Below, piece after piece: positions 4,873 through 45,355 of a stretch of 63,393 nucleotides of DNA. The position numbers and the translations under genes were made by a program. How positions within the stretch are numbered: position 1 is the stretch's first letter; each line of letters opens with the position of its first letter. The notes beneath the pieces are model-generated. The model was not told the origin of the DNA. It saw only the letters and a program-made list of their open reading frames with translations, and did no database searches. Source of the stretch: Actinomycetota bacterium (GTDB taxonomy: Bacteria > Actinomycetota > AC-67); NCBI GenBank assembly GCA_046565595.1, contig JBKHYG010000017.1, forward strand, positions 1 to 63,393. The letters run 5' to 3'.

Positions 4873-6714
4873 CTATGTGAGATGCTCGATCAGTTCTGCG
4901 ACCGCATCGTAGCGCCGGAACGCAGGTATGAGGTACACCCCGGACGCCCAGGGGCTCGTAGCCTCGATCGTCTCTCGGGCGATGGCCATCCCCTCGGCCC
5001 TGGGGTCGTTCGCCCTGGTCAGGCGGTCCCTGACGGCCTCCGGGATCTCTATCCCCGGCACCTCGTTGTGCAGGAATTCGGCGTGGCGTGCCCCGACCAA
5101 GGGTAGCGATCCAAGGATCAGGGGCAGGGTCAGGTCCCCGTAAGCCGCCCGGTAGGTCTCGACCAGCCGTTCGAGGCTCTTCGGCTCGTAGACCGGCTGG
5201 GTGAGCGCGAAGGCGGCTCCTGCCTCGATCTTGCGACGGAGCACGCGGGCCTCTCGTTCCAGATCGGCCGCGTTGGGGTCTACGGCGCATCCCACGGTGA
5301 ACCTGGTCGGCTCTCCGATCGTTGCCCCTGATCCGTCGCTGCCGGCGTTCAGGCGCTGAGCGATGAGCGCGATCAAACCCGACGGGGTCACCTCCGAGAG
5401 GTCTCCCGTTCCCGGGTCAGTAGACACCGGGTCGCCCATGACGGCGAACAGGTTCCGAAGGCCAAGCGCATGAGCGGCCAGCAGGTCGGACTGGATCCGC
5501 AAGAGGTTGCGTCCCCGGGTAGGGAAGTGCAGGATCGTCTCGACTCGGGCCTCGGTCTGGATCAGGTGAGCTGCTGCCCATGGCGCCATCCTTAGTTGGG
5601 CGCGAGGGGAATCGGCGATGTTGACCGTGGTCGCACCTGCGTCCCGAAGGGTCTCGGCTGCGGCGATCATGCGAGACAGGCTCGGACCGTGCGGTGGCTC
5701 CATCTCGACCGTGATGACCCGCTGTCCTGCCGCCAGCGCAGCAGCCAGACGCGAGGGCGGCTGCTCGACGGGGGTTGTGCCGGCGGGCCCTTCCTCGCTC
5801 TCGAAGACCTCTACACGAACGGCATCTGACGGAGCGGAGGCCAAGGCGGCAGCTGCCATCGCGATGTGCCGAGGACGGGTTCCGCAACACCCTCCGATGA
5901 TGCGTGCACCCACCTCGACGAATGCCGGCATGTAGCGCGCGGTGTATTCGGGCGCGGCGGAATACAGGGTCCTCCCGCCCGAATGTTGTGGCCCACCGGC
6001 GTTCGGTTGCGCGATGAGGGGTGTCGAGTGGGCATGTGGGGCCATCGCGCTCAGGACCCGCAGCACCTGCTCGGGACCTTCCGAGCAGTTCGCCCCTAGC
6101 GCGTCGGCGCCTGCAGCCGCCAGCTCGGACGCGATGCGCCAGGGAGGCTCCCCTAGCAGCGTCCGATCGTCGCGCGTGAATGTCATCGTGACCGCGACCG
6201 CAAGATCCCCGCCGACCTCTCGAGCGACCCGGAGCGCAACCAGCGCCTCGCTCAGATCGCTGAAGGTTTCGAGCAGCAGCAGATCCACTCCCGCTCTAAC
6301 AAGGGCGCCGATCTGCTCGGCGAAGGCTTCGGCAGCCGCCGGCTCTGCCACCCTCCCGTAAGGCGCCAGTCGGACCCCCAGCGGGCCGACCGACCCAGCC
6401 ACGATCTCGGCTCCTGCTTCCCGGGCTCGAGCCACGCCAGCCAGGTTCACCTCTTCGACCAGGTTCTCGGCACCGAAGGACCCCAAGCGGTAGCGGTTCG
6501 CGCCGAAGGTGTTGGTCTCGATGATCTGGGCGCCGGCCTCGACGAACGAGGCGTGCACATCCCGAACCAGGTCGCGGTCCTGGATGTTCAGTAGGTCGGC
6601 GCACGCGTCAGGTGCGGCTCCTCGTTCCAGCAGGCTCGTGCCGGTGCCCCCATCGGCCAGTAAGACACGATCGGCCAGGAGTTGAGCGAAGGAGCCACGA
6701 TCCATCGGTGGCAC
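4873..6714 (-). CDS. bifunctional homocysteine S-methyltransferase / 5,10-methylenetetrahydrofolate reductase (YitJ-like)
   Basis: The N-terminal S-methyltransferase domain has '..ADGGTGT..', 'IIETNTFGAN' and the zinc motif 'GGCCGTRPRHI'. The C-terminal MTHFR domain has '..VEMEPPHG..', 'NIADSPRAQLRM', 'HFPTRGRN'. Confidence 0.9.
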   Translation of the reverse strand: MPPMDRGSFAQLLADRVLLADGGTGTSLLERGAAPDACADLLNIQDRDLVRDVHASFVEAGAQIIETNTFGANRYRLGSFGAENLVEEVNLAGVARAREAGAEIVAGSVGPLGVRLAPYGRVAEPAAAEAFAEQIGALVRAGVDLLLLETFSDLSEALVALRVAREVGGDLAVAVTMTFTRDDRTLLGEPPWRIASELAAAGADALGANCSEGPEQVLRVLSAMAPHAHSTPLIAQPNAGGPQHSGGRTLYSAAPEYTARYMPAFVEVGARIIGGCCGTRPRHIAMAAAALASAPSDAVRVEVFESEEGPAGTTPVEQPPSRLAAALAAGQRVITVEMEPPHGPSLSRMIAAAETLRDAGATTVNIADSPRAQLRMAPWAAAHLIQTEARVETILHFPTRGRNLLRIQSDLLAAHALGLRNLFAVMGDPVSTDPGTGDLSEVTPSGLIALIAQRLNAGSDGSGATIGEPTRFTVGCAVDPNAADLEREARVLRRKIEAGAAFALTQPVYEPKSLERLVETYRAAYGDLTLPLILGSLPLVGARHAEFLHNEVPGIEIPEAVRDRLTRANDPRAEGMAIARETIEATSPWASGVYLIPAFRRYDAVAELIEHLT

Positions 6715-6791
6715 GATAGCGGCGACATGCAGGTCGCAAGAGTCGTTGCGTCGCTAGGATTGGGCCCTGACGAGATTTGGAGGGAGCCTTC

Positions 6792-7184
6792 GTGCATCGG
6801 AAACGGATCATCGCACTGGTATTGCTCGCTGCCGTGCTGCCTGCGTGCGCGGCCTTGAAGGACCGCGAGCCGTTCCTGGCGCCGGCCATCACCCTCACCG
6901 AGGACCCGGTGACCGGTCAACCGATGATGACCCCCAACGAGATCACTGGCACATGGTCCTACGGGAAGATCCAGATCGAGAACAGCACGGGCTCGGACTA
7001 CTACTTCGTCCAAGACGACCTAGCCATCTACCAGCTGCTGCCCAAGGGTCAGGCTCCCATCGTCTCGATATCTGAAGCCAAGGACGGCAGGACCTACACC
7101 TTCTACCTGGCCAAGGAGAAGCCCGAGAGCGAGATCCGGGCCGAGGGGAAGCTGCACATCAGCTACACAGAAGAGGACCTCTAA
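6792..7184 (+). CDS. lipoprotein, function unknown
   Basis: GTG at 6792 is preceded by GGAGGGAG. Signal plus lipobox 'VHRKRIIALVLLAAVLPAC'. No family recognised. Confidence 0.65.
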   Translation: MHRKRIIALVLLAAVLPACAALKDREPFLAPAITLTEDPVTGQPMMTPNEITGTWSYGKIQIENSTGSDYYFVQDDLAIYQLLPKGQAPIVSISEAKDGRTYTFYLAKEKPESEIRAEGKLHISYTEEDL

Positions 7185-7199
7185 GGCGAGGTCCTCTTC
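7170..7199. terminator. bidirectional hairpin terminator
   Basis: Perfect 12-bp stem gaagaggacctc/gaggtcctcttc with loop taaggc. It spans the TAA stop of the + gene and lies 22 nt from the stop of the convergent - gene. Confidence 0.6.
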
Positions 7200-7220
7200 G
7201 CGGAAGTCGTACAGCAGAGG

Positions 7221-7760
7221 TCAGGCTGGCCGGACATCCAGGGCTTCGTTGAGGACCTGCTCGAAATCGACATTGACCGCCTGGCCTTCGATCGTAGGGT
7301 CTTCGCGGACGGTCAGGAAGTACATGAAGTTGTCGTGGAACCATGTCGAGATGATCTGACCGTTCGACACGATCTGATACACATCGACGCCTTCCTTCTC
7401 GACCGGCTGGGGAACCGCACCCGTGATCCCGCCGAGCAGGTTCCGCAGGAACTCTCGATCATCGAGCCGTGCGTCTGGAGCTAGCCGCGAGACCTGGAAG
7501 ACTGCCCGCAGCTCCTCGCCATCGCGAAGCGCGTAGACGGCTCCCTCGCACTGGTAGGTATCTTTAGGCTCAGACGCGGTGTTCAGCGATTCTGCTGCGT
7601 CGGGCTCGGGCACAACCCGCAAGCCGCCGATCCGATCCGGTGGAGACACTTCCATCCCGAGAGTGGCGTCATCAGGACCACCGCACTGGGCCGCCTCGAA
7701 CGAGGCGCACGCGCTGAGACCCATCGCCAACACCACGAGCAAAGCGACCTTCCTGATCAT
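7221..7760 (-). CDS. lipoprotein, function unknown (last gene of the long minus-strand operon)
   Basis: Start at 'MIRKVALLVVLAMGLSAC' (ATG 7760), overlapping the upstream stop in ATGA. Lipobox LSAC. No family recognised. Confidence 0.65.
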   Translation of the reverse strand: MIRKVALLVVLAMGLSACASFEAAQCGGPDDATLGMEVSPPDRIGGLRVVPEPDAAESLNTASEPKDTYQCEGAVYALRDGEELRAVFQVSRLAPDARLDDREFLRNLLGGITGAVPQPVEKEGVDVYQIVSNGQIISTWFHDNFMYFLTVREDPTIEGQAVNVDFEQVLNEALDVRPA

Positions 7761-8224
7761 CCGTACACGACCAGCTTCCCAGACACCATGTACGGGACCA
7801 CGGTGCACTTGAACTGATAGTTGCCAGGAGCGAGGTTGATCGTCAAGGTCTTCGACTGGCCGCCATCCAACTCGCCCGAGTCGATCGGTGTTCCTTCTAC
7901 GGTGAAAGAGTGTTTCTGACCGGGGTTGGCGCTGTTGATGAACTTCACCTTGTCGCCGGACCTCACCGCGAAATCATTAGGTTCGTAGACATTGCCAGAG
8001 GTCGCCCTGACCTCGTAGGTCTCGGCCTTCGGACCTTGAGGCTTCTGAGTGGTAGGAGGCGGAGCCTTCTTGGTCGGCTTCGGCTTGTCAGGGGCCTTCT
8101 TCGTTGTCGGCGGCTTGGAGGAGGGCGGCGGCGTGTAGTCGAGATCATCACCGATGGAGGTTCCGCTCGAGCAGGCGCCGAGCACCAACAGCATCGCGAG
8201 ACTGATCGATAGACGACGGATCAT
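7757..8224 (-). CDS. cupredoxin-like lipoprotein with Pro/Lys-rich linker
   Basis: Lipobox 'LLVLGAC' and linker 'PPTTKKAPDKPKPTKKAPPPTTQKP'. The C-terminal domain '..GDKVKFINSANPGQKHSFTV..GNYQFKCTVVPYMVSGKLVV' resembles amicyanin/plastocyanin-type cupredoxins. Confidence 0.7.
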   Translation of the reverse strand: MIRRLSISLAMLLVLGACSSGTSIGDDLDYTPPPSSKPPTTKKAPDKPKPTKKAPPPTTQKPQGPKAETYEVRATSGNVYEPNDFAVRSGDKVKFINSANPGQKHSFTVEGTPIDSGELDGGQSKTLTINLAPGNYQFKCTVVPYMVSGKLVVYG

Positions 8225-8232
8225 CAGGGAAG

Positions 8233-11200
8233 CTACTCCTTGTTCTTCTTGGTTACGGCGCCAGAGCGCTTGATGACCGACTCGTCGCCACCCAGATAGG
8301 CCTGGACGACTCGCTCATCGCTCAAGACGACATCGGGACGATCACGGATCACGACCTTGCCCAGTACCATCGCGATCAGCTCGTCGCTGACCGCGCTGAT
8401 CAGAGGCATGTCGTGCTCGATGATGATAAGACTGCAGCCGGTCTCTCGCTTGATCTGGTTCAGCAGCGGGCCCATGTTCTCGGCCTCGCGCTGGGCAAGA
8501 CCGCTCGAAGGCTCATCCAGCAGGAGCACTCGAGGTTCTGCGGCCAATACGCATGCCAGGTCGAGGATGCGACGGGTTCCCGTAGAGAGTTCGCTGACGA
8601 ACTTGTCCCGGTAACCGCCGAGCTCTAAGAGTTCGATGAGAGCATCCGCCTTGCGCCGCGTGGTGGCTTCACTGCGGCGCGCCTGCGGTAGACCCAGGCC
8701 GTGGACCACCATGCTCTTGACCTCGAGGTGCCGTTCGAAGGAGAGCGCGACGGTCTCGAACACGGTCAGCGAGGGGAACAGCTTGGCGTCCTGGAATCGA
8801 CGGACCATACCGAGGGCCGCCCTTTGCTCGGGCGAATAGTTGGTCACATCCTTTCCGAGCAGCATGATGCGACCCTCATCGATCGGGTTGAAGCCGCTGA
8901 TCATCTCGAGGACCGTGGTCTTACCGGCACCGTTCGGCCCGATCAGACCGAGCGCTTCGTTCTCACGGAGGGCGAATGAGACACCGTCGACCGCCCGCAC
9001 GCCGCCGTAGGTCTTGACCAGACCTTCTACCTCGAGGATGTTTGCACGCTCCTCGTCGCGGAGCTTGGGAGCGACCGCGGCGCTGCCTCCGAGGCTCTTG
9101 CCACCCTTGAGGAATACAGCACGCATGATGTCGGGACGGCCGAGCAGGTCCTCGGTCGGACCGTCGAAGCGGATCTCGCCCTTCTCCATGAACACGGCGC
9201 GTTCGGCGACCGTGAGGGCAACATTCACCGACTGCTCGACGAGGATGATCGTCGTCCCACGCTGGTGGATCGCACGAACGATCTTCAGCAGTTGCTCGAC
9301 GATCGCCGGCGCTAGTCCCAGAGACAACTCGTCGATCATCAGCAACTTCGGACGAGACAGGAACGCCTGAGCGAGGGTGAGCATCTGCTGCTCGCCACCG
9401 GACATCGATCCGGCCGCCTGACCGAGCTTCTCACGCAGGATCGGGAAGTAGGAGAAGACCTGCTCGACCTCGTTGGCGTAGTTGGGGTCGTCGCTGTAGA
9501 GCCAGCCGGCGAGCTCGAGGTTCTCCTTGACGGTCAAGGACGGGAAGATGCCTCGTCCACCGGGCGTCTGGGCTATGCCTTCAGCCGCGATCTCGTGCGG
9601 AGGGACATGGGTGATGTCCTTGCCATCGAAGACGATGGCGCCGCCCGAGGCCTCCTGCGTGCCGCTGATGGCTCGTAGAACCGTCGATTTACCCGCGCCG
9701 TTGGTTCCGAGCAGCGCGATGATCTCGCCCTCCTCGACATCGAGATCCACATCGAACAGAACCTGGACGGAGTCGTAGTGGACATCCACGCCGCGAAGGA
9801 CCAGCAACTTGCCCTTGCCGGCGAGCTTGGCTTCTCGCCAGGTCTCCTCTGCGAGTGCTGCCGCTGCGGCCGAGCGCATGTCGAACTCGACATAGGGTCC
9901 GGCGGTGATAACGATGAGGCTACCGATGAACGAGAAGGGCACGAAGGTCAAGATCGCGGATCTCATGCCACCCGCGCCAGCGATCGCGCCGATGATCGGG
10001 AACATGAAGAAGACCGGGATGGTCCAGTAGTCGAGCGTCGCGATACCGAGGTTCCTGAGCCGAGGCGGGATGACCATCGAGGTCACCGCGACGGTCGCGG
10101 GAAGGATCATCGCGTCGAAGAAGGTCGTTATCAGGATGATCGCAACCACGAAGGGGACATTCGGCCCCAGCGCGATCCCTACATAGCCGAGCGCAGTTAC
10201 GGCGCCCGCCACGCCAGAGATCATGACTACACGGCCAGGGTTGCGGCCAACGATGCGGTCCACCAACGGGCCACCCATCGCGACCCCCATGAAGGCGGTG
10301 AGTGCGGCTAGCGAGCCGATGACGCCGCGCGCGAACAGGTCCACCTGATGGGTCGTGGCCAGATACAACGGCATGAAGATGGCGAAGCCCAGCGTCGATA
10401 GCTGGGCGAAGGGGACGGCGTACGAGTAGCGCCTGAGTGTCCGGACCCCCCACGCCGCGCGGAAGGCCTCTCCCCAGGAGGGCGGCTCCTGCTGGCGCCG
10501 CGCGATCTCTTCGTTGGCACCGAAGGCTTTGCGTTCGTGATAGCCGCGGATCGGCTCGGGCATCTTGAAGAAGTACAGGGACAGCAAGACCCCTGCGACG
10601 CCGACGATGAGGAACGGAACGCGCCAGCCGAACATCGACCCGATGACGCCTACGAACAGAGGAGCGATGACTGCGCCGATCTGGCGCCCCGCTGCGCGGA
10701 AGGCATATGACTGGCCGCGCGCTTCGGGCGGGACATAGTCGGCGATCAGCGAGAATCCCACGGCATTGGGACCGAGCTCGCCGACCGTGTCCAAACTGCG
10801 GGCTCCATATAGGCCGAACCTGTTCGGCGAGAGACCGGTGAAGAGGACTCCGATCGAGTTGACCAGCGAACCGATCGCGAACAGCGTGACGCGACGGGAC
10901 CGGTCACCCAGGTATCCCAGCGGCACTGACAACAGCGTTCCCAGGAGCCCGATCCACTTGGCCAACTCGAGGATGGCGCTCAGGTTCAGCTTGAAGGACC
11001 GCTGGATCTCGGGAAGCGCCTGGCTGAAGGCCCTCGCACCGAAGATCGAGACGATCCCGAGAGCCATCAGCATGATCAGGGGTGTGCGACCGTAAGAGGA
11101 CTGCAGGTTGCTGATCCTCAAGCCTTGGCGGATCAGCTTGAAAGGCTGCAACCAGAGCGGACCGTCAGGTTTCTCGTCGCGCCTGGCCGTGGTGCCGGGG

Positions 11201-11364
11201 ATGTGAGATTCGACGATCTCGGTGGGTGCGTCAGCGGGCGGCTCGTGCGAGGTGTCTTCGGGAACCGGAGCGTTGACCGCCGGGATCTCTTTGGTGTCGT
11301 CCTCTACGGTCGTCGAATCGACCTGCGCACCCTCGATCGGTTTCGGGTCCTCTTGCCGGCTCAT
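8233..11364 (-). CDS. triple fusion: MFS transporter domain + LivF-like ABC ATPase + LivG-like ABC ATPase
   Basis: Start at 'MSRQEDPK' (ATG 11364, ATGA overlap with the upstream stop). MFS motifs 'LGYLGDRSRRVT' and 'VPPEARG'. NBD1 has GTNGAGKST/SGGEQQ/LLMIDELSLGL. NBD2 has GPNGAGKTT/LSTGTRR/LLLDEPSSGL. Confidence 0.85.
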   Translation of the reverse strand: MSRQEDPKPIEGAQVDSTTVEDDTKEIPAVNAPVPEDTSHEPPADAPTEIVESHIPGTTARRDEKPDGPLWLQPFKLIRQGLRISNLQSSYGRTPLIMLMALGIVSIFGARAFSQALPEIQRSFKLNLSAILELAKWIGLLGTLLSVPLGYLGDRSRRVTLFAIGSLVNSIGVLFTGLSPNRFGLYGARSLDTVGELGPNAVGFSLIADYVPPEARGQSYAFRAAGRQIGAVIAPLFVGVIGSMFGWRVPFLIVGVAGVLLSLYFFKMPEPIRGYHERKAFGANEEIARRQQEPPSWGEAFRAAWGVRTLRRYSYAVPFAQLSTLGFAIFMPLYLATTHQVDLFARGVIGSLAALTAFMGVAMGGPLVDRIVGRNPGRVVMISGVAGAVTALGYVGIALGPNVPFVVAIILITTFFDAMILPATVAVTSMVIPPRLRNLGIATLDYWTIPVFFMFPIIGAIAGAGGMRSAILTFVPFSFIGSLIVITAGPYVEFDMRSAAAAALAEETWREAKLAGKGKLLVLRGVDVHYDSVQVLFDVDLDVEEGEIIALLGTNGAGKSTVLRAISGTQEASGGAIVFDGKDITHVPPHEIAAEGIAQTPGGRGIFPSLTVKENLELAGWLYSDDPNYANEVEQVFSYFPILREKLGQAAGSMSGGEQQMLTLAQAFLSRPKLLMIDELSLGLAPAIVEQLLKIVRAIHQRGTTIILVEQSVNVALTVAERAVFMEKGEIRFDGPTEDLLGRPDIMRAVFLKGGKSLGGSAAVAPKLRDEERANILEVEGLVKTYGGVRAVDGVSFALRENEALGLIGPNGAGKTTVLEMISGFNPIDEGRIMLLGKDVTNYSPEQRAALGMVRRFQDAKLFPSLTVFETVALSFERHLEVKSMVVHGLGLPQARRSEATTRRKADALIELLELGGYRDKFVSELSTGTRRILDLACVLAAEPRVLLLDEPSSGLAQREAENMGPLLNQIKRETGCSLIIIEHDMPLISAVSDELIAMVLGKVVIRDRPDVVLSDERVVQAYLGGDESVIKRSGAVTKKNKE

Positions 11365-13511
11365 ACGGTCACCTTCCCATATAGACGGGACGGCAGCGTG
11401 TAACGCTGATCGGCCCGAAGGGCTCCGATCCCTTGGCTTGGCACGGCAGGAGCCAAGGGCGTGAGGCGTTTCTCCCAAGCATCTGGAGAGTAATCAGCGA
11501 ACAGACTGGGAACGACGATGTGTCGCCTAAGCGCGACGACCCGCAGCACAGCATCCCGTATCCCGAAGACGATCTGGGCGAGGCCGCCTGGGATCGCCAT
11601 CATCAGGGCGAGCCCACCGACCCCGGTCAGGATGCCAAGCACCCCAGGGAACAGGATGCCTCCGCCCACGAAATACAGGGTTCCGAGGAAGGCACCAGCG
11701 ATCGAACTCACGCCTCCGATGATGACCAGTTGGAACACACCGAAGGAGAGTTGCGCGTTGTAGAAGGCTGGATCCATGCCTCGCTGAAGATGCACAGTGA
11801 TGCCTCCAGCGAAGGCCGCCAAGAAGCCCGAGATCGCGAAGGCCATCAGGCGTGTTCGCACGATGTCCACACCGAAGGCCTGGACACCCTGCTCGTTGTC
11901 GCGAAGCGCGATCAGCAGGCGGCCTGCGCGACTGTTGCGAAGGGTCCTCACCATCACCGCGACGATCAGGAACGCCAGCAGGGAGAAGTAATACTGCGTC
12001 CGCGGATCGTCGAGATTGAACACCAAGATGCTCGGACTCTCGATGAGAGTTGGAACGCTGCTAGCCAGGAACCTGTCCGAGAACAGGATCGTCGGGAACG
12101 CGATAGCCAGCGCGAAACTCGAGACCGCAAGGAACAAGCCTCGGATCCGCAGAGCGGGAAGCCCAACCAGAACCGCGAGTATGGCGCCAGCGAGACCAGC
12201 GATGGGCAGCGCGAGGAGGAACGGGAACCCGGTCGAGGTCAGGTTTCCTGCGATGTAGGCCCCTGTCCCCAGGAATGCGATGTGACCCAGGCTGATCTGG
12301 CCGGTCCAGCCGGTCAGGATGACCAGAGATACCGCCAGGATCGACCCGGTCCAAACCGCGCTCATCGCGCCGGTGTTCTCGGATCCGAACACCCATGGGA
12401 ACGCCAAGACGATCAATGCCCCGATGGCGATCAACGATTGGCGCGTTCGTCGGATGAAGGGCAGCGCCAAGAGTTCGCGCGGGGTGGGGCGCACCTCTCG
12501 GGTCGCCTTCCAAGAACTCGAGTCGTCCACGCGAGAAACCTTGTGCCTCTGGAACAGCAGGGCAACCAGGACGATGCCGAAGGTGATGATGTCGAGCAGA
12601 GAACCATCACCCAGTTGGGCGAACATGCTCTGCCGAAGGATCACCAGCCCCATACCCGTGAGGAAAGCGATCGGGAGGCTCATCATCTTGGCTACCACCG
12701 CGGCGGTCAGCGGTAGCACCAGGACGGTCTGAGGGGCGACCTGTCCGGGGACATAGGGTTCGGTCACCATGTTGGCGATGCCGGCAACACTCGTGATCAA
12801 CCCGACGATGGCCCAGACGCCGATGTTCAGCAGCTTGACATTGATACCGAGCAGCGATGCACGATCGGCGTTCTCGGCAGAAGCTCGGACCGCGATCCCC
12901 ATCCGGGACCGTTTGAAGAAGATCACCAGACCAAGCAAGGCGAGCGCGATGGCGAAGAAGCTGACGATGTGAGCCAGCCGGATGGGGGTAACCCCTAGCT
13001 GGAAGATCTGGTTATCGAAGAATGTGCCGGGCGTTGGGATCGGCTGAACCTGGATGCTCTCGCCGGGCTTCTGGAAGGCCGAGGCGACCTCTTGACTGAC
13101 GATCCCAACGATGCCGGTCATGAACACGGTGACAACCGTCAAGGTCAGGCGCGGATGCCTGAAGAACAGCGTCGAGGCCAGGATCCCGATGATCACCGCG
13201 ACCAAGGTTCCGCCGATGATCCCGACCGGCCAAGCGATCGGATACGGCAGGATCCCGCGCGTGTAGAACTCGTAGAAGAGCTGCATCGCGACCAGCGCCA
13301 GAGACGACTGCGCGAAGTTGATGATCCTGACCGTGCGGTAGATCATCACCAGCCCGATCGCGGAGATGCCCACGGTGGCAGCAGGGATAAGGCCGGTCAG
13401 GAACTCGCCAGCGGTTAGGCCCGCGACACCGAACGCATAGATCCCAAGGAGCAGGCCGATCCCCGCCGTTAGCGCGACGGTGAGTGTCTTACCTTCGAGC
13501 TTCTTGCTCAC
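11361..13511 (-). CDS. fused branched-chain-amino-acid-type ABC permease (LivH-like + LivM-like halves)
   Basis: 716 aa and very hydrophobic. The N half resembles LivH ('..MIYRTVRIINFAQSS..'). The C half resembles LivM ('..LTGWTGQISLGHIAFLGTGAY..'). The GTG start overlaps the upstream stop (GTGA). Confidence 0.9.
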   Translation of the reverse strand: MSKKLEGKTLTVALTAGIGLLLGIYAFGVAGLTAGEFLTGLIPAATVGISAIGLVMIYRTVRIINFAQSSLALVAMQLFYEFYTRGILPYPIAWPVGIIGGTLVAVIIGILASTLFFRHPRLTLTVVTVFMTGIVGIVSQEVASAFQKPGESIQVQPIPTPGTFFDNQIFQLGVTPIRLAHIVSFFAIALALLGLVIFFKRSRMGIAVRASAENADRASLLGINVKLLNIGVWAIVGLITSVAGIANMVTEPYVPGQVAPQTVLVLPLTAAVVAKMMSLPIAFLTGMGLVILRQSMFAQLGDGSLLDIITFGIVLVALLFQRHKVSRVDDSSSWKATREVRPTPRELLALPFIRRTRQSLIAIGALIVLAFPWVFGSENTGAMSAVWTGSILAVSLVILTGWTGQISLGHIAFLGTGAYIAGNLTSTGFPFLLALPIAGLAGAILAVLVGLPALRIRGLFLAVSSFALAIAFPTILFSDRFLASSVPTLIESPSILVFNLDDPRTQYYFSLLAFLIVAVMVRTLRNSRAGRLLIALRDNEQGVQAFGVDIVRTRLMAFAISGFLAAFAGGITVHLQRGMDPAFYNAQLSFGVFQLVIIGGVSSIAGAFLGTLYFVGGGILFPGVLGILTGVGGLALMMAIPGGLAQIVFGIRDAVLRVVALRRHIVVPSLFADYSPDAWEKRLTPLAPAVPSQGIGALRADQRYTLPSRLYGKVTV

Positions 13512-14554
13512 AACACCTCACCGGGATCAAGCCGGGCGAGACGCGCGAGGAAGTTGCCGCTGATGAAAGTGTTGCCGCCGTCGATCGAGAAGACCTCCTG
13601 GATCGACCAACCGCCATACTGGGTCGCCATCCAGAAACTCCCGATCAACGAGACCTCGACATCACCGGTGATCTCGATGCTCGTGTTGAAACGCCAGGCC
13701 TGCGCCATCTGGTCACAGACGAAGACATTCTGTGGCTGCGCGACGATCACGCTCGTCGAGATGGTGGAGCTAGGCGGCGCAAGGGGAAGCTGCTGGCCTT
13801 CGACTTCCACATCGTTAGCTGCACGGTTGGGCTGAGTCGAGTCGGTCCTTTGGCCGGCACCCAGTGGGAAGCTGGCCAGTTTGAGACCACCGGTCTCGGC
13901 GTTGGCAGGTATGAACACGCGCGACTGTGTCTTATCGGCGGCCAGCGGGATCCGGATGCTTCGCAGGTAGATGCCAGCGACCTCGGCGTTCGAGGATTCC
14001 GCGTTCTCTGAAGCCTGCGACGGATAGATGATCGTGTACTCCATCGTCACGCCGTGACCTTCGTCGATCACCGTGTAGAAGAAGGAGTTCGTGCTCTCGT
14101 TGTCGCGCCGGACACCGACCCGCTTGTAGTCGTAGCCAGACTTCGACGGCTCGCCCGCGTAGTTGCCCTGATAGAAGGTCGGATACTGGCCGCGTCGAGG
14201 CCAGTTCCCTCCCCGCTCTGGGTCGTCAGGGTCGAAGGGACCAGGCCTGACCGAAGGAGGCGCCTGACCGTCGCGTGGCGAGTTCGTCTGCACGCCCGGG
14301 CAGAACGGGGTAGGCGGCGGCGGGGGTGGCGGCGGCGGAAGTGGAGGCGGCTCGTCCGGCGGGATGAAGATGTTCGGCGGAGGCGGGGGAGGAAGCGGCG
14401 GAGGCTCCAAGAGCTCCTCGACATCCACACCGAAGGCGAGGTCCACGGCGACCTTGCCGATGCTGACATCGGCCTTGGGCGCGAGGTTCGCGCAGGAGCT
14501 CACCGCGAAGGCGAGAGCCAGGACCGAAGCGAGATAGTTACGCGACCACTTCAT
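13508..14554 (-). CDS. lipoprotein with long poly-proline tracts, function unknown
   Basis: Signal/lipobox 'MKWSRNYLASVLALAFAVSSC'. Tracts 'PPPLPPPPPPN..PPPLPPPPPPPPPTP' are followed by a ~250-aa beta-rich domain. It overlaps the upstream gene by 17 nt and the downstream gene by 4 nt. It does not resemble a Peripla_BP_6 binding protein. Confidence 0.7.
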   Translation of the reverse strand: MKWSRNYLASVLALAFAVSSCANLAPKADVSIGKVAVDLAFGVDVEELLEPPPLPPPPPPNIFIPPDEPPPLPPPPPPPPPTPFCPGVQTNSPRDGQAPPSVRPGPFDPDDPERGGNWPRRGQYPTFYQGNYAGEPSKSGYDYKRVGVRRDNESTNSFFYTVIDEGHGVTMEYTIIYPSQASENAESSNAEVAGIYLRSIRIPLAADKTQSRVFIPANAETGGLKLASFPLGAGQRTDSTQPNRAANDVEVEGQQLPLAPPSSTISTSVIVAQPQNVFVCDQMAQAWRFNTSIEITGDVEVSLIGSFWMATQYGGWSIQEVFSIDGGNTFISGNFLARLARLDPGEVL

Positions 14555-16973
14555 CTTGCTTTCCCTTCCGTCTGGGGAACGACGGTAGACGGAGACGGAT
14601 CCGGTTTCCGTAGCGGATCTTCGTGCCCCTCTTCCTACGCTTCGGGAGGAACTTCCGCCACTCGAACTTGGGTACCGGCGGGCTCAGGAGTTCCGGAGCG
14701 TACGGATTGCGAAGACTCAAGCGCGACACATAGGCGACCGCCCTGATGGTGAAGGGTTGGGCTTCCGAGAGCCTCCTACGCAGGGAGCGCGACAACTCCT
14801 CGGCAGCTAGGACCTCGTCATCAGTGATCCGGCCTCGCAGGTCGCCGAAGAGCGTGCGTGTGACCAGCCAGGCCAACTCTTGGTGTTCCTCGTCGGGAAC
14901 GACCTTGCGGGTGTAGGCCAGCGGGGTCCCATAGGGGTCTCCGACGCCCAGGTCGGTGGCTAGGTCGCGCATGTCCGCATAAGCCACGGCGATCCGCTCG
15001 GAGCGTCCCTGCCGCAGCGCCCATTCCTTGCGTTTGGACCGGCGGCGCGCTTTGAGGATCACCGGGTAGGCGAAGTAGGCGAGGATGGCCGCGAGGATGA
15101 AAGGCATGGCGAGCAAGATGTATGCCTGCGCTTGCCGCAGCAGGTAGTTGGTGGGCTCGTCACGCTGAGGCACGAACAGGTTCACCGCGATGTCGTCACT
15201 CGGCAGGATGATGGAGTCCTGCGAAGCGTCGCCGGTGAGGCTCTGGCGCGCCTTCTTTGGAAGTCCGGTCACCGGGAACCAGCCGATGCCCTCGAAGTAG
15301 ACCTCGAGCCAGGAAGCGCCGTGCTTGGGTCGGTACTCGCGAAGCGTCTGGGCGGCCGCGGAAGCCTCACCGACATCGAAGCCGTAGCCGATACGCGCAG
15401 GCACACCGAGCCAACGCGCGAACATCGCTTGCGTTGCGACGATCTCGAATGGTGTGGCCTCACGGGTGCCGCTGAACATGTCTTCGATCTTCTCTGGCGG
15501 CACCGGGCTCGGAAGGCCGGCTCCGGCTGCCGTGATCATGCCCAGGTACTCCTCACGGATGTAGTCGAGCTGATCCCAGGTGTTGTCATAATCCTGTCGC
15601 GCCGTGGCGATGAGCGCGGCCGCAGACTCAGGCGGTTCGAGTTCAGCGGTGGAGGTGAATTCTTCGAAGAAGGCGGGGTCGGTGGGAGCAGGAGCGTTAC
15701 GCAGTTCCTGCTCGGTCGGCAGGAACGAGAACGAAGCCTGGTAGGCCAGCCCGTCGCCGACCTGACCCTCACGCACGAGGACGCGCTGCGTACGCACCTC
15801 GAGATCGAGTTTCGGGCCCTTGGTCACGCGGATCGCCTGCACCCGCGCCGGCATCGGGAGAACGGTGCCGTCGAGCCCCTGAACATTGATCGTCACGATC
15901 GACTGGCTCGGGCCCTCGTGACCGAAGGGACGGCCGACCAGACCATCGCGCGGCGCAGCTCGTTGTCCCGCCGCGTTGAAAGGCGGCAGCCTCCACCAAC
16001 CCTCCGGATCGATGACATCGAGGACGCCGGTGCGCCACGGCCCGGTGAAAGGAGCGTCCGGCGGGGTCTCGGCGGTGAACAGAACCCGGTCTTCGATCTC
16101 GGACAGTGGGATGGACTTAGGCCGCTGCGCGCGCTCGGTGGGGTCGAAGATCGGGTCGGGGAACAGGAAGCCTGCCTGGCTGACGGCGACCAGCGCGGCT
16201 GTCAGTGCTGCCAGCAGAGGCAACATACGGACCGCGCGACGGATCTCGTAGGCGACCGAGACCCCGTCACCTTCTCCCCTGTCCGCTCGGTAGATGACAG
16301 CCAGGCCGACGACGAAGGTGATGAAGGCGACGATGCCGGATGCGATCTGAGCGTCGGAAGGCTGCGCGATGGCTGCGAATGCGATCACCGGCATCGGTAC
16401 GAGAACGCCCATGGCCGGTTTGCGACCTACGGATCCCACCCAGGCGGCAGCGAAACCGAGCATCGCGAGCGTCCAGGGCAGGATCGCTTTCCAACCGTCA
16501 TCGAAGACCGCAGGAGGGCGGCGTTGCCTGGCGTTGGAGACTGCCTTTCCGAGCGTTTCTCCGATCGAGCCCAACGCTCCAGGGGAGGTGATCGCGAGCG
16601 CAACCAGTCCGCAGGCGAGGATCGCGCCGAAGGCGATCAGTTGGCTGACCCCGGGGCGCTTCGAGGGGCGTGCGGCGAACATCGCCGCGCCCACACCGAC
16701 CAAGGCACCGAAGACCGCGTAGAAGCGCGGCAGCGCACCGACGAACATGCCACCGACCAGGAACGCCGCACCGAGCGTGGTCGAGAGCGCCCCGAACGAG
16801 GGGCGCATGATCTCTTCCCGCGTTAACGGGCGATCCTCTTCCTCCTCGATCAGTTCAGAAGCCTGGCGGACCTTGCGTTCGGCTTCGCCACCGGAGTCCG
16901 CATGGGTGTCCGGCGTGGGAGCCGCCTGAGCATCCTCGAGTTCGGTGCGCGGGTCTTCGATGATCTGGCTCAT
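14538..16973 (-). CDS. transglutaminase-like (TgpA-type) polytopic membrane protein, apparently lacking the catalytic Cys
   Basis: 811 aa with N-terminal multi-TM region. The transglutaminase-core-like segment is '..ATPFEIVATQAMFARWLGVPARIGYGF..KHGASWLEVYFEGIGWFPVTGLP..'. A further TM is followed by a DUF4129-like tail. ATGA overlap with the DUF58 gene. Confidence 0.8.
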   Translation of the reverse strand: MSQIIEDPRTELEDAQAAPTPDTHADSGGEAERKVRQASELIEEEEDRPLTREEIMRPSFGALSTTLGAAFLVGGMFVGALPRFYAVFGALVGVGAAMFAARPSKRPGVSQLIAFGAILACGLVALAITSPGALGSIGETLGKAVSNARQRRPPAVFDDGWKAILPWTLAMLGFAAAWVGSVGRKPAMGVLVPMPVIAFAAIAQPSDAQIASGIVAFITFVVGLAVIYRADRGEGDGVSVAYEIRRAVRMLPLLAALTAALVAVSQAGFLFPDPIFDPTERAQRPKSIPLSEIEDRVLFTAETPPDAPFTGPWRTGVLDVIDPEGWWRLPPFNAAGQRAAPRDGLVGRPFGHEGPSQSIVTINVQGLDGTVLPMPARVQAIRVTKGPKLDLEVRTQRVLVREGQVGDGLAYQASFSFLPTEQELRNAPAPTDPAFFEEFTSTAELEPPESAAALIATARQDYDNTWDQLDYIREEYLGMITAAGAGLPSPVPPEKIEDMFSGTREATPFEIVATQAMFARWLGVPARIGYGFDVGEASAAAQTLREYRPKHGASWLEVYFEGIGWFPVTGLPKKARQSLTGDASQDSIILPSDDIAVNLFVPQRDEPTNYLLRQAQAYILLAMPFILAAILAYFAYPVILKARRRSKRKEWALRQGRSERIAVAYADMRDLATDLGVGDPYGTPLAYTRKVVPDEEHQELAWLVTRTLFGDLRGRITDDEVLAAEELSRSLRRRLSEAQPFTIRAVAYVSRLSLRNPYAPELLSPPVPKFEWRKFLPKRRKRGTKIRYGNRIRLRLPSFPRRKGKQDEVVA

Positions 16974-18271
16974 CCGCGGCTCCCCGCGCCGACCTCGTGG
17001 TACAGGGCACTTGCTATGGACTGTCCGGGCCTCAGTTCAACGACCTGACAGCCAAGCGACGCCGCGACCCGGACGGTCTCCTCGTGATCCTCTTCCCACA
17101 CGAGAGCCACCACCAAGACAGAGACACCCTTGCGAAGCAGGAACTGCAACCGCGCTGCGGTCTCTCTGGAGAGCAGAGGCGTGATGAGGATCGTGTGCGC
17201 GTCGCGCTTGTTGTTGACCAACAGACGCTGGAACACCTCGTCCAACAACTTCTTGGATGGCTCGAGTCGAGCGAAGCCGTCCAGCACCTGCATCGCCGCC
17301 GCGTCTCCTCGGGCCTTCATCGCGAGCATCGGCCCATCGTTGGTCTCGACATTGACCGTGTAGCCCTCGTGCAGGTGTCGAACCGCCAGCGAGGCCGCGG
17401 TACGGACCCCTGCCTCGAAGGATTCGCTCTGCTCTTCTCGAGAGTGGGTGCCCTTGAAGGTGTCGAAGATGATCGTGATCTGGTCGGTGATGCCCTGCTC
17501 GGCTTCGCGTACGAGCATCCGCCCGGTGCGTGCGAAAGCGCGCCAGACGATCCGCCGCAGATCGTCACCGGGCTGGTAGTCGCGCATCCCGTAGAACTCG
17601 AGACCGCTCGGCCAGGGCTTGGAGAACGGAGGACGGATCGGCGGGTCTTCGAAGTGGCGCGTGAGCGGTCGACTGGAGACATGTTCGATGTTCGGATGGA
17701 CCAGCAACTCGAACTCGGGAACGAGGACCTGCTCGCGTTGGGTCAGTCCGATCGGATCGCCCCACCGGACCACCAGTGGTCCCAACTTGTAGACGCCGCG
17801 CCGCTTGCAGTAGAGGCGGTAGGAGTGCTGGATGTCTTCGCCCGCGTGAAGGGTGGCCAGCGGCAACTGCACCGTCGTACCCAGACGGTCGGGCAGTTCC
17901 TCTTCGAGGACGATCGTCGACAGCTTCTTCTTCGCATGCAGGATCAGGTCGATACCCAGCGTCTCGCCGACGCGTGCACGCGCGCGCACATCCGAGCGTT
18001 CGCCGGTCAGCGGAAGGCTACGGCGTCCGGTCAGGTAGACCGTGAGTATCAGACCGACCGCACCGTAGGCGAAGAGATAGAGCGTCTTGCCCGCTACCCA
18101 ATAACCGATCAGCCAGAGGATGACGGCGAGCACGACTCCCAGCAGACCGATCGGCGTCAGGCCGATCTTGCGCTGGATGCGCAGCATCAACGGACGCCAG
18201 GTCTTGGCGGAAGTCGCGGTAGCGATCCCGTCGCTGACGCTCCGTTGGAGCCGCTTGAGCCGACCCTCCAT
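16970..18271 (-). CDS. DUF58 domain-containing protein (MoxR partner, VWA-related)
   Basis: Two N-terminal TM helices and the hallmark 'FYGMRDYQPGDDLRRIVWRAFARTGRMLVRE'. It sits immediately downstream of moxR. Confidence 0.85.
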   Translation of the reverse strand: MEGRLKRLQRSVSDGIATATSAKTWRPLMLRIQRKIGLTPIGLLGVVLAVILWLIGYWVAGKTLYLFAYGAVGLILTVYLTGRRSLPLTGERSDVRARARVGETLGIDLILHAKKKLSTIVLEEELPDRLGTTVQLPLATLHAGEDIQHSYRLYCKRRGVYKLGPLVVRWGDPIGLTQREQVLVPEFELLVHPNIEHVSSRPLTRHFEDPPIRPPFSKPWPSGLEFYGMRDYQPGDDLRRIVWRAFARTGRMLVREAEQGITDQITIIFDTFKGTHSREEQSESFEAGVRTAASLAVRHLHEGYTVNVETNDGPMLAMKARGDAAAMQVLDGFARLEPSKKLLDEVFQRLLVNNKRDAHTILITPLLSRETAARLQFLLRKGVSVLVVALVWEEDHEETVRVAASLGCQVVELRPGQSIASALYHEVGAGSRG

Positions 18272-18296
18272 CTGTTACCTCGTCCCGTCCAGGTCC

Positions 18297-19352
18297 CTAC
18301 TCGTCGGACACGACAGAGCGGTTACCGGTTCCGTCCTTCACATCACCCATGAGAGGAGCCTTGACTCGACCGACGACTCGCTCGATGACCGCCTCGATGT
18401 TCTCGCCGCGCAGGATCGCGTCGGGAGACAGGATGAGACGGTGCGCGAGCACCGGGTTCAAGATCGTCCGCACATCATCTGGGTACACATGGCCACGACC
18501 ATCACTGGCAGCCAGGACGCGTGCAGCGCGCAGCAGGTTGATGGGAGCACGCGGCGATGCGCCCATCGCGAGCCCAGGCTCTTCGCGGGTCGCCTGGCAC
18601 AGATCAACGATGTAGAACTGGACCGCCTCGGAGCATTCGATGGACTCCTGAGCGAATGCGATCATCGCCGCCGCGTCCTCGGTCTCGATGACGGCGCCCA
18701 GGGAGTCGACAGCCAGTTCCTTGGCGTTGGCGGACATGATGATGCGCTCGGCGTCACGACTGGGATAGCCCATCTTCAGCTTGAACATGAAACGGTCGAG
18801 CTGGGCCTCAGGGAGAGGGAAGGTACCCGCCTGCTCGACAGGGTTCTGGGTCGCAAGCACGAGGAAGGGCCGCGGCAGGTTGCGGATAACTCCGTCACCG
18901 GTCACGCGACGCTCTGCCATGGCCTCCAGCAGCGCGGACTGGGTCTTTGGGGTCGCGCGGTTGATCTCGTCAGCCAGGAGGATGTTGGCGAAGATCGGCC
19001 CTTCGTGGAAGACGAACTTCTTCTTCTCTTGGTCGTAGATGCTGGTTCCGGTGATGTCCCCGGGGAGCATGTCCGGCGTGCACTGGATGCGGCCGGCTTC
19101 AGCGTTCAACGACTGCGCTAACGCACGCGCGAGGACGGTCTTGCCGACGCCCGGAACATCCTCGAACAGGATGTGGCCCTCGGAGAGCATCGCGACCAAA
19201 GCGAGACGCGAGACATCGTCCTTACCCTTGACGACGGTGCCGACATTGCTGATGACCGCTTCGAAGACCCGCTGATAGGTCTTCGGATCGAGCCGAGCCG
19301 AACCCCTGCTGCTCGTGGCGCTGGAGCTCCGCTTCTTGGTGGTTGTCGCCAT
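18297..19352 (-). CDS. moxR: MoxR-family AAA+ ATPase
   Basis: Walker A 'DVPGVGKTVLARAL', Walker B 'ILLADEINRATPKTQSALLEAM', and the MoxR-type 'RIQCTPDMLPGDITG' and 'FLVLATQNPVEQAGTFPLPEAQLDRF' segments. Confidence 0.93.
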   Translation of the reverse strand: MATTTKKRSSSATSSRGSARLDPKTYQRVFEAVISNVGTVVKGKDDVSRLALVAMLSEGHILFEDVPGVGKTVLARALAQSLNAEAGRIQCTPDMLPGDITGTSIYDQEKKKFVFHEGPIFANILLADEINRATPKTQSALLEAMAERRVTGDGVIRNLPRPFLVLATQNPVEQAGTFPLPEAQLDRFMFKLKMGYPSRDAERIIMSANAKELAVDSLGAVIETEDAAAMIAFAQESIECSEAVQFYIVDLCQATREEPGLAMGASPRAPINLLRAARVLAASDGRGHVYPDDVRTILNPVLAHRLILSPDAILRGENIEAVIERVVGRVKAPLMGDVKDGTGNRSVVSDE

Positions 19353-19639
19353 CCTCTCCCCTATGTCGCGTGCTGACGCCTAGGCGTCTGGTCATGCCAG
19401 GCCACACCAGGGACGGGAACCAGGACGGGTCGTCCTGCCCCACGACCTCCATGCAACCTTCGTCCCCCTCTGACCACGGACGGCATGAGACGCCTCCCGA
19501 CTCCGAGGGGAAGGCGCCAGAGTAGCGCAGGGAAAGGCGATACCGCCAACGCCCGCGGGCAGGGAAATCGCATCAAGACGGCGAACATCATGTGCGAGCG
19601 TGGCCCATCGCCACCTTTACTTCCAAGGAGGAAACCCCG

Positions 19640-20125
19640 ATGCGATCCATCCGATTCCTGCTGGCAGCCCTGCTGCTCGGCATGCTCGCTCCGGTTGCGG
19701 CACAAGCCGATTATCCGGAAGAGTGCGAATCCCCCATCCGCCTGCTGTCTGGCCGCGGCGTGCTATTCGACTGGGGTGCTGTGAACTGCAGTTATGCCCA
19801 GGAGCCGACCCTAGGTAGCACCTCCATCGTTATCCCTGGCGGAACCCAGATGGTCGTCCGCTTCAACGGCGCGAAGCCGGTGGACGGCATCTCGCAGATG
19901 GGTACCGGCTCGAAGGTCACATACGGTCAGACCACCAAGTACCTGCGGTTCGAGCCTGCCACCGGCGCCGACGGCAACCCGCTGGCTGGACACTGGGACG
20001 CTTCCTTCAGCGTCGGCAATGTCGAAACGGTTAACGCGGGCGAGTACCTCATCTCTGTGATCTCGCCTGAGGGGCTCGAGGGTGCGGATGTCACCTACGA
20101 GCGCTCGTACAGCACCGTCGCCTGA
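19640..20125 (+). CDS. small secreted protein, function unknown
   Basis: ATG at 19640 is preceded by AAGGAGGAAA. Signal peptide 'MRSIRFLLAALLLGMLAPVAAQA'. No family recognised. Confidence 0.6.
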   Translation: MRSIRFLLAALLLGMLAPVAAQADYPEECESPIRLLSGRGVLFDWGAVNCSYAQEPTLGSTSIVIPGGTQMVVRFNGAKPVDGISQMGTGSKVTYGQTTKYLRFEPATGADGNPLAGHWDASFSVGNVETVNAGEYLISVISPEGLEGADVTYERSYSTVA

Positions 20126-20140
20126 TCGATAGGAACATGC

Positions 20141-20166
20141 GAGGAGGGCCCCTAGGGGCCCTCCTC
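20141..20166. terminator. bidirectional hairpin terminator
   Basis: 26-nt perfect palindrome gaggagggcccctaggggccctcctc, between convergent stops at 20125 and 20198. Confidence 0.65.
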
Positions 20167-20197
20167 TTCGTTGCGCTCGCTTTCTCCCGGCCGGGCT

Positions 20198-21628: not shown

Positions 21629-21747
21629 CGTTCCTCCTGGTGAACCGCGGGGGCCAGCGCTGATCGTCGACCCTCTCGCGTCTGCTAACCGTTCAGACAC
21701 CGGCCGAGCGCTTCCGGTTCCACCGGACGGGAACTCATCCCATGCGA

Positions 21748-21776
21748 GAGGGCTGCCCGCTCGGCGGACAGCCCTC
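21748..21776 (-). terminator. possible hairpin terminator after glnK
   Basis: Imperfect stem gagggctgcccgc/gcggacagccctc (one mismatch) with a 3-nt loop, 28 nt downstream of the glnK stop. There is no U-tract. Confidence 0.35.
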
Positions 21777-21803
21777 AAGATCTCCGTTCGGACGGTCAGT
21801 AGG

Positions 21804-44526: not shown

Positions 44527-44626
44527 GTTCGTCCTCCTAGCGTCCCGCGTGGGACCTTCTTCCGACGCCCTGTCTCTCAGCGCGTCGCAAGGGACGGTAG
44601 GAGAGCTGTCGGACGCTCAGGCATCT

Positions 44627-44648
44627 AGGAGGTGAACGAGTGATGAAC
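44627..44648 (-). promoter_or_regulatory. candidate PHO box (two 11-nt direct repeat units) upstream of the PstS-like gene
   Basis: The minus strand reads GTTCATCactc GTTCACCtcct, about 100 nt upstream of the ATG at 44526. It matches the GTTCACC-type 11-nt repeat units bound by actinobacterial PhoP-type regulators. Confidence 0.5.
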
Positions 44649-44695
44649 GGCTGCAGAGCGTAAGGAGACGGGAAGTCCCTGCGGCCCCATGGGTA

Positions 44696-45355
44696 TCAGG
44701 CGAAGTCGGCGATCTCTCCGGTAACGAGGAACACGACCTGCTCGGCGACATCGACCGCGTGATCGCCGACCCGTTCGATCTGCCTACTGACGACATGCAT
44801 CCGGATACCCCACTCGAGCATCCTCTTGTCATCCCCGACCCGCAGGACCTCGTCGAGCATCCCGCGATTGAGCTTGTCGATCGGCTCGTCCATCCGAGGC
44901 AGTTCCCTAGCGAGTTCGACATCGCGCCGCGCGAAGGCGTCCATCGCAGCCCCGATCATCTTGAGCGCGATCGTGCCCATCTCCTCCAAGGTATCCCGCA
45001 CCGTGGGTGCCTGGGGAAGTCCCGAAGCCACACGAGCGATCTTGGCGAGATTGACGCTCATGTCCCCGATGCGCTCGAGGTGGGTGTTGATATGCAGGAG
45101 TGCGGTCAGCAACCGTAGGTCACTAGCGACCGGCGCCTGGAGGGCGAACAGGTTCGTGATCCGCTGTTCGTTGCGCTGGTAGTACTCGTCGATGACATCG
45201 TCACCATCGATGACACGCGCGCAGAGTTCCACATCATCCTTGACCACCGCTCGCAGCGATCGTGCGAACAGGTCTTGGGCAGCCGCACCCATGGCCTGAC
45301 AGTGGGCCTCAACCCGCCGCAGCTCGTCGTGGAACTGGTGACGCGACTCGCTCAC
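44696..45355 (-). CDS. phoU: phosphate signalling complex protein PhoU
   Basis: GTG 45355 overlaps the pstB stop (GTGA). 219 aa with two PhoU repeats containing '[12 protein letters not shown]' and '[12 protein letters not shown]'. Confidence 0.9.

Follow-up and report, generated by a model that had tools for sequence, protein, structure and literature searches.

The stretch of DNA considered here, referred to below as the window, comprises positions 1-63,393 of contig JBKHYG010000017.1 from an Actinomycetota bacterium (GenBank assembly GCA_046565595.1). Its minus strand carries a gene in which a major facilitator superfamily (MFS) transporter domain is followed, in the same reading frame, by two ATPases of the kind found in Liv-type ATP-binding cassette (ABC) importers. 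The strand is open without interruption from 11478 to 8233, and the ATG at 11364 gives a product of 1043 amino acids (aa). This start codon lies 5-8 nucleotides (nt) behind a Shine-Dalgarno-like stretch, GGAAGGTGA, and shares four nt (ATGA) with the TGA stop codon of the upstream gene, which encodes a fused LivH-LivM permease (LivHM). A scan of positions 6500-20500 for promoters and terminators returned nothing above chance. A first-pass annotation of the window had described one polypeptide combining an MFS part with both Liv ATPases, and the intact open reading frame (ORF), the Pfam and NCBIfam domains and the in-frame relatives described below bear this out. All of the motifs that it quoted are present in the translation, namely GYLGDRSRRVT and PPEARG in the MFS part and GTNGAGKST, SGGEQQ, LLMIDELSLGL, GPNGAGKTT, LSTGTRR and LLLDEPSSGL in the ATPases.

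The N-terminal membrane region had been taken for an MFS-like domain of 12 transmembrane (TM) helices, as distinct from a LivM-type permease, and it has a complete MFS fold. Pfam assigns residues 100-391 and a second stretch to MFS_1 (PF07690; E=1.8e-35, the score being 123 bits where 33.4 would suffice), a structure model places 12 helices in it, and no significant match to BPD_transp_2, the LivM-type family, was obtained for it in the Pfam scan. A LivM-type permease is thus ruled out, MFS_1 being the only family that Pfam gives there. The Pfam family ABC_tran matches the fusion protein in two stretches (E=5.2e-59). The best NCBIfam models are LivF/UrtE for residues 520-752 and LivG/UrtD for residues 774-1026 (E from about 1e-86 to 1e-89), which is the order of nucleotide-binding domains (NBDs) that had been proposed, and BCA_ABC_TP_C matches weakly at the C-terminus (20.4 against a Pfam cut-off of 25.5). 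The cognate permease had been placed in the separate gene upstream. The product of that gene contains two BPD_transp_2 stretches (178 bits against a cut-off of 26.8, E=2.2e-52) and gives partial NCBIfam matches to LivH, LivM and UrtB/C, and it is therefore read as a LivH-LivM fusion. The features of the locus are collected in Table 1.

Table 1. Segments of the fusion gene and the genes around it; positions are those of the window.
Feature	Position	Strand	Basis
Fusion gene, 1043 aa: N-tail, MFS, linker helix, LivF-type NBD, LivG-type NBD	8233..11364	-	
N-terminal acidic tail, aa 1-93, mostly disordered, poorly conserved	11086..11364	-	AF2 and conservation
MFS domain, aa 94-486, 12 TM helices	9907..11085	-	Pfam, NCBIfam, AF2
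Junction, aa 487-518, with conserved helix 489-514 (26 residues), from TM12 to the first strand of NBD1	9811..9906	-	AF2
NBD1, aa 519-751, LivF/UrtE-type	9112..9810	-	NCBIfam, similarity to 1JI0
Inter-NBD linker, aa 752-774, disordered	9043..9111	-	Low pLDDT, low conservation
NBD2, aa 775-1043 plus stop, LivG/UrtD-type	8233..9042	-	NCBIfam
Fused LivH-LivM permease, 716 aa, about 17 hydrophobic segments	11361..13511	-	Pfam, NCBIfam, hydropathy
Lipoprotein, 348 aa, no family	13508..14554	-	No Pfam/NCBIfam match
TgpA-like transglutaminase membrane protein	14538..16973	-	Pfam
DUF58	16970..18271	-	Pfam
MoxR AAA+ ATPase	18297..19352	-	Pfam
Cupredoxin-like protein	7757..8224	-	Pfam Cupredoxin_1, E=6e-9
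195-aa hypothetical protein	7221..7808	-	Conserved downstream in relatives

A single-chain AlphaFold2 (AF2) model of the fusion protein, built on 39 sequences, has a predicted local distance difference test (pLDDT) score of 81.9 and a predicted template modelling (pTM) score of 0.68. Six of the MFS helices lie within residues 94-265 and six within 308-486, at pLDDT 85-94 and in agreement with hydropathy, and short intracellular helices occupy residues 275-306. A single continuous helix (489-514) runs between the MFS domain and the first NBD (NBD1, 519-751), which is followed by a disordered segment (752-768, pLDDT below 50) and the second (NBD2, 775-1025). A fold search with the full-length model was informative for the NBDs only. 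At the N-terminus pLDDT is below 50 for residues 1-39, the first regular structure is a short helix at 73-82, and TM1 begins at residue 94, so that the unstructured tail is about 70 aa long. The earlier description of an acidic, probably disordered tail of some 100 aa is thus upheld as to disorder and is too generous as to length, the whole region before the MFS domain being about 93 aa. The tail (residues 1-93) is the least conserved region of the fusion protein; its length is 70-99 aa in the window's clade, against 11-47 aa in Acidimicrobiales-type loci, and intermediate in loci L044 (46 aa) and L046 (52 aa). Judged from these sequences, a long unstructured tail is peculiar to the window's clade.

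A scan of one genome per species yielded 77 loci with a relative of the MFS part, in which all ORFs were translated and compared with the domains and neighbours found in the window. At about 47 of them a single ORF of the form MFS-NBD1-NBD2 lies directly after a LivHM gene, and about ten further loci are cut by contig ends. The TGA stop codon of LivHM overlaps the start of the fusion by four bases (ATGA or GTGA) in 53 of 56 loci, and this conserved overlap suggests that translation of the two genes is coupled, so that each MFS-NBD-NBD chain would be matched by one LivHM. When the full protein served as query in a word-indexed protein search, 38 full-length fused proteins of 39-94% identity were recovered. 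It is hardly credible, given this record, that the single ORF is a product of faulty assembly or sequencing in which an MFS gene and a LivFG gene were run together. Some relatives do appear split: the ORF is fragmented in L051 and L057, both on long-read contigs, L001 contains a run of N, as does the scaffold in which protein P0002 is truncated, and P0004 is truncated because its contig has two gene calls that overlap, of which it is the second. None of these faults is specific to the window. Against them stand a 94%-identical protein, also of 1043 aa, from a different sample, and the recurrence of the in-frame junction, conserved linker residues included, in 38 database proteins and about 47 independent genomes. 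Every complete relative keeps this junction in frame, with D495 and G516 invariant among 39 fused sequences, and its recurrence argues that no stop codon or frameshift has been missed. The fusion architecture is real and, by these comparisons, is conserved as a family, mainly in Acidimicrobiia.

Most loci carry Acidimicrobiia labels (Acidimicrobiales, Iamiaceae, Microthrixaceae, Acidimicrobiaceae and Aquihabitans). Frankiales or Dormiibacterota is the label of a few, several are labelled only ‘Actinomycetota’, and one database protein, P0222, is labelled Ilumatobacteraceae. The fused proteins are named in the databases either ‘MFS transporter’ or by a double COG label that combines a Liv ATPase with an MFS permease.

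The ABC half keeps the sequence motifs of both ATPases. NBD1 has a Walker A motif GTNGAGKST, a signature SGGEQQ and a Walker B motif LLMIDE, with VEQS at the position of the H-loop; the corresponding elements of NBD2 are GPNGAGKTT, LSTGTRR and LLLDEP, with an H-loop IEHDM. Walker A, the signature, the Walker B Asp-Glu pair and the H-loop His of NBD2 are invariant in the 39 fused sequences, and by these intact catalytic motifs both NBDs are predicted to be competent ATPases. The closest solved relative of NBD1 is 1JI0, by sequence (E=2.3e-59) and by fold (TM-score 0.91). Scores against NCBIfam models fall below the cut-offs for LivF (288.6 bits against 441) and LivG (298.5 against 362), as well as for UrtD (289.7 against 304.1), UrtC (80 against 296.2) and UrtB (49 against 250.3). 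UrtE is exceeded (309 against 285.8) because both NBD stretches add to the score. A urea transporter UrtBCDE was therefore rejected, since its subunits are not all above their equivalog cut-offs. On these scores the ABC half is of the Liv/HAAT kind at family level and is not an equivalog of LivF, LivG or Urt. The product of the fusion gene would be the cytoplasmic motor subunit of a Liv/HAAT-type ABC importer with an MFS domain on the N-terminus of its LivF-type ATPase.

The MFS domain retains the features expected of a transporter that changes conformation. Motif A, GYLGDRSRRV, lies between TM2 and TM3, and this is the salt-bridge motif between TM2/3 and TM8/9 (PMC8154325). The motif DYVPPEARG stands at the end of TM4 and in the loop between TM4 and TM5, the C-terminal half contains PLVDRIVGRNPGR, the counterpart of motif A, together with IPPRLRNLG, and a conserved central loop reads EPIRGYHER...EPPSWGEAFR...TLRR. 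Residues invariant in the 39 fused sequences include D154 and R158 in motif A, as well as D209 where TM4 ends on the cytoplasmic side; we take these three to be the motif-A charge network that stabilizes one state of the rocker-switch, as in the work on YajR. They also include P433 and R437 in the loop of the C-terminal half, P271, R273, E299, R302 and R312 in the central cytoplasmic loop, and D495 after TM12. The TM4 arginine R189 is conserved in both clades. Because the conformational-switch motifs and this arginine are kept, the MFS part is likely to be active as a transporter and not just an anchor. Its identity to Acidimicrobiales-type loci is 26-36%, compared with 31-39% for LivHM and 45-67% for the NBDs, and by this measure the MFS part diverges about as fast as LivHM.

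The MFS part falls outside the named subfamilies tested, which were the ACS/D-galactonate (2.A.1.14), aromatic acid:H+ (2.A.1.15) and Spinster subfamilies. Its NCBIfam scores are 79.7 bits for TIGR00893 (cut-off 395) and 55.1 bits for TIGR00895 (cut-off 418.55), and UhpC is a weak match. The nearest solved MFS protein by sequence is the Spinster homologue HnSpns (6E8J; E=3.8e-14, a partial match of only about 110 residues), followed by DgoT (6E9N; E=1.9e-9). The MFS part bears only a weak resemblance to organic-anion carriers. In 12 loci (e.g. L008 3196-4893) the module has an AMP-binding, acyl-CoA synthetase-like gene a few kb away at most. This neighbour and the likeness to organic-anion carriers point to carboxylic acids, though only as hints.

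The module also occurs in other arrangements. An exhaustive profile search with the MFS part gave 455 representative clusters of its subfamily at E<1e-30, and the top 150 representatives include about 40 proteins of the form MFS-NBD1-NBD2, about 13 complete MFS-NBD1 proteins, which end just past the LivF-type domain, and about 25 complete stand-alone MFS proteins. In L082, LivHM, MFS-LivF and LivG are separate genes with an ATGA overlap, and in L086 LivG is followed by a free MFS gene. L080 has LivHM, a free MFS gene and then an MFS-LivF-LivG fusion. The fused copy in L080 has a degenerate central loop that lacks the otherwise conserved HER..A.GA segment, and the free copy is canonical. The two MFS units of L080 together span 8001-12286, and the free protein, which precedes the fused copy, is 460 aa long. 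The closest relatives without an MFS domain (P0230-P0233) contain the whole LivH-LivM-LivF-LivG transporter as one polypeptide of 1260-1333 aa (L083 6001-9963, L084 6001-9783), with NBDs about 51% and a permease part 35-38% identical to those of the window. The variant layouts form a Rosetta-stone pattern which, at the level of sequence, links this MFS subfamily to these ABC systems, and the partly fused and unfused variants indicate that the association of MFS and ABC parts is under selection. On the simplest reading, this would be an actinobacterial HAAT lineage prone to fusion, in which an MFS gene entered between LivHM and LivF and was then fused to LivF, the association being kept through later fissions and rearrangements.

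Clustering of the neighbouring ORFs of 56 loci showed that in 27 loci the LivHM/fusion module is flanked, immediately downstream or upstream, by a protein of about 600 aa. Members tested are not recognized by Pfam, but a profile of the cluster matches, at E of about 1e-106, a 576-aa Peripla_BP_6 protein that neighbours a LivHM-LivF-LivG gene. These proteins appear to be an enlarged, divergent family of LivJ-type binding proteins, and with such Peripla_BP_6-type homologues beside the modules, most systems of the family look like binding-protein-dependent importers. The idea that the MFS part is a general substitute for a binding protein was rejected, since most related operons encode one of these divergent Peripla_BP_6-type proteins; this holds outside the window's clade. 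Members of this extracytoplasmic family, of about 575-675 aa, lie at L009 10979-12736, L010 9542-11356, L054 3760-5787, L080 1957-5830, L082 4121-5851, L083 3999-5942 and L084 4261-5991, and L080 has two tandem paralogues.

In the window the fusion gene belongs to a tightly packed minus-strand string of genes in the order MoxR, DUF58, TgpA-like, lipoprotein, LivHM, fusion, cupredoxin and 195-aa protein, with overlaps of 4-17 nt among the upstream genes at 14538..19352. This order recurs in L001, L003-5 and the contig of P0004, and L044 and L046, which are more distant, keep part of it; the cupredoxin and 195-aa genes are found downstream in L001, L003, L005 and the P0004 contig as well. The lipoprotein has a signal peptide, a lipobox cysteine (Cys21), a long poly-proline stalk and invariant Cys85 and Cys280, and its orthologues are always found between the TgpA-like gene and LivHM (L001, at about 6188-7183, L003, L004, L005, L044 and L046). 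In the window's clade it may serve the transporter as its extracytoplasmic partner. That it is a classical type-I binding protein is unlikely, as its low-confidence AF2 model (pLDDT 51) shows an all-beta C-terminal domain. Peripla_BP_6 was absent from Pfam scans of about 36 proteins of the window.

Elsewhere in the window, a fused homocysteine S-methyltransferase/methylenetetrahydrofolate reductase gene lies at 4873-6714 (minus strand), and the P0004 contig also has this gene next to the module. The minus-strand gene at 20198-21778 encodes a protein of 526 aa that has a lysyl-oxidase-like domain. A phosphate-uptake region (43288-48980, minus strand, and 49841-50971, plus strand) has two PBP_like_2 (PstS-like) genes, two BPD_transp_1 permease genes and genes for PhoU and an ABC ATPase; a PAS histidine kinase is encoded close by, and the region looks like ordinary chromosomal context. 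A 1352-aa ORF without a Pfam match (39223-43281, minus strand) lies between FtsH (37226-39220) and a PBP_like_2 gene (43288-44526).

Several known systems resemble parts of this one. The LivFGHM(J/K) (HAAT, TC 3.A.1.4) and UrtBCDE transporters share with it the BPD_transp_2 halves and the LivG- and LivF-type ATPases with their typical motifs, and the likeness to LivFGHM(J/K) extends to the Peripla_BP_6-type binding protein in most related operons, though none was seen in the window. However, an MFS domain is not described for any Liv or Urt system, and here one chain combines LivH with LivM and another the two ATPases, with F before G. The LivHM-LivF-LivG polypeptides, which are uncharacterized metagenomic proteins, have the same F-then-G order, and next to one of them is encoded a 576-aa Peripla_BP_6 protein, a homologue of the binding proteins in the MFS operons. 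In these polypeptides LivF directly follows the C-terminus of LivM, whereas in the window's family the MFS domain takes that position and LivHM is a separate chain. The best structural matches to the model are DppD and OppD of the Mycobacterium tuberculosis DppABCD and OppABCD systems (Foldseek E of about 1e-24), which likewise have two NBDs per chain. They differ in belonging to a peptide family of BPD_transp_1 type and in that the NBD chain is without a membrane domain.

On the MFS side, the Spinster-like proteins and anion:cation symporters (HnSpns 6E8J, DgoT 6E9N and sialin) have the 12-TM fold and motif A in common with the fusion. The likeness is weak (about 80 bits against NCBIfam cut-offs of about 400), and ABC parts are neither joined to these carriers nor encoded alongside them. 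The TMD0 of ABCC- and TAP-type transporters is a familiar case of an ABC core with an additional membrane domain at the N-terminus, but TMD0 is a bundle of three to five helices fused to the transporter's own membrane domain, not a complete transporter fold on an NBD. MFS proteins wired to another activity include LplT, joined to acyltransferase and acyl-ACP synthetase domains, and the transceptors Rgt2/Snf3 and UhpC (PMC8154325). In these cases the partner is an enzyme or a signalling tail, never an ABC ATPase. Full-text literature searches and the review PMC8154325 gave no description of a fusion of MFS and ABC NBDs, and sequence and fold searches of solved structures returned none with an MFS domain joined to ABC ATPases. 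The remark in the first-pass annotation that no role for the MFS part is obvious from known Liv systems therefore still applies. The module thus appears to be a widespread but undescribed combination, whose proteins are already in the databases under generic automated names.

How the two halves might work together can be outlined from these comparisons. The reading that we tentatively favour is that the MFS part is a working, gradient-driven path beside LivHM in one complex, handling the same or a linked solute, with a cycle that the NBDs could influence and with an ABC half that remains an ordinary importer. LivHM and the tandem NBDs would form an ordinary binding-protein-dependent HAAT importer, and the MFS domain would be a transport-competent third membrane module held beside LivHM by the 26-residue helix. 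Its solute might be that of LivHM or one connected with it in metabolism, for which it could offer another route with its own affinity or act in exchange or export, and the ATP-dependent closing and opening of the NBD dimer could influence its cycle through the short, rigid tether. It is unlikely that the coupling goes so far as to make the MFS part and the ABC importer one mechanically coupled machine, in which NBD closure would gate or drive the rocker-switch or the state of the MFS domain would gate the ATPase.

A number of observations weigh against a working MFS path tied to the ABC importer. In L085 the MFS gene has no Liv gene upstream (on a short contig). An aspartate in TM1, present in 21 of 22 Acidimicrobiales-type sequences, is not conserved in the window's clade, where coupling or substrate may therefore differ. 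As the MFS part lies far below the cut-off of every named subfamily, its substrate class is a guess. The 63 kb window has no recognizable Liv-type binding protein, as judged by comparing the family profile with its ORFs of at least 80 aa. The central loop and the Asp motif after TM12 are also found in stand-alone MFS paralogues and are thus traits of the MFS subfamily and not proof of an NBD interface. The loop had been considered as a docking surface for the NBDs, a proposal weakened by its retention in the free-standing paralogues. The MFS part may therefore work independently of the ABC cycle.

It is also improbable, on balance, that the MFS part is an accessory membrane domain which transports nothing and instead anchors, assembles or localizes the NBD pair, or recruits partners such as the lipoprotein or the TgpA-like protein to it, much as TMD0 is attached to ABCC and TAP transporters. 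Such a role would suit a domain joined to the motor and not to the permease, the loss in the window's clade of the TM1 Asp found in the other clade, the contrast in L080 between a fused copy with a degenerate loop and a canonical free copy, and an operon that encodes other membrane and extracytoplasmic proteins of unassigned role. However, over a range of 39-94% identity little or no change is seen in the motif-A residues of the two halves and in the TM4 Arg, which is hard to square with a static anchor, and stand-alone members of the subfamily look like ordinary transporters. The same conservation of conformational motifs is what a sensor would need. As a transceptor or regulator, the MFS domain would bind solute outside or inside the cell and signal to NBD1 through the rigid linker, turning the ATPase on or off, whether as a sensor or in trans-inhibition. 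The tether is short, conserved and helical over its 26 residues, MFS transceptors such as Rgt2/Snf3 are known (PMC8154325), and UhpC is among the weak NCBIfam matches. Yet the MFS gene can stand free after LivG, as in L086, or before a second, fused MFS copy, as in L080, so that the covalent link is dispensable, and such a signalling role is distinctly unlikely.

Covalent attachment to NBD1 through a conserved rigid helix would equally suit an ATP-driven MFS, whose rocker-switch is powered by the NBD dimer as a second ATP-energized path beside LivHM or in place of its function, and the lack of a recognizable Liv-type binding protein in the window's operon fits the same scheme. It is nevertheless highly improbable. 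A full LivHM is always present, apparently translationally coupled and the canonical partner for LivF and LivG, and unfused variants exist. Moreover, only one NBD is tethered, and at TM12 only, and to our knowledge MFS proteins have no coupling helices for NBDs.

The MFS, powered by gradients, and the ABC transporters, powered by ATP, are the two largest transporter superfamilies and have been treated as separate solutions. The fusion provides a natural test case of whether their mechanisms can couple, regulate each other or share a substrate. Should a coupled machine prove true, it would be a natural hybrid of primary and secondary transporter, with a mode of coupling that has not been described for either superfamily. 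A search of solved structures with the LivHM sequence found no match, and as no HAAT-family permease is thus detectable there by sequence, a structure of the complex would be informative twice over. The family also matters for annotation. Its proteins go by no other names than ‘MFS transporter’ and ‘branched-chain amino acid transport ATP-binding protein’, and the binding proteins of about 600 aa mostly escape Pfam. As a result, what Acidimicrobiia can transport is being misread, and these bacteria abound in soil, freshwater, marine and wastewater communities.

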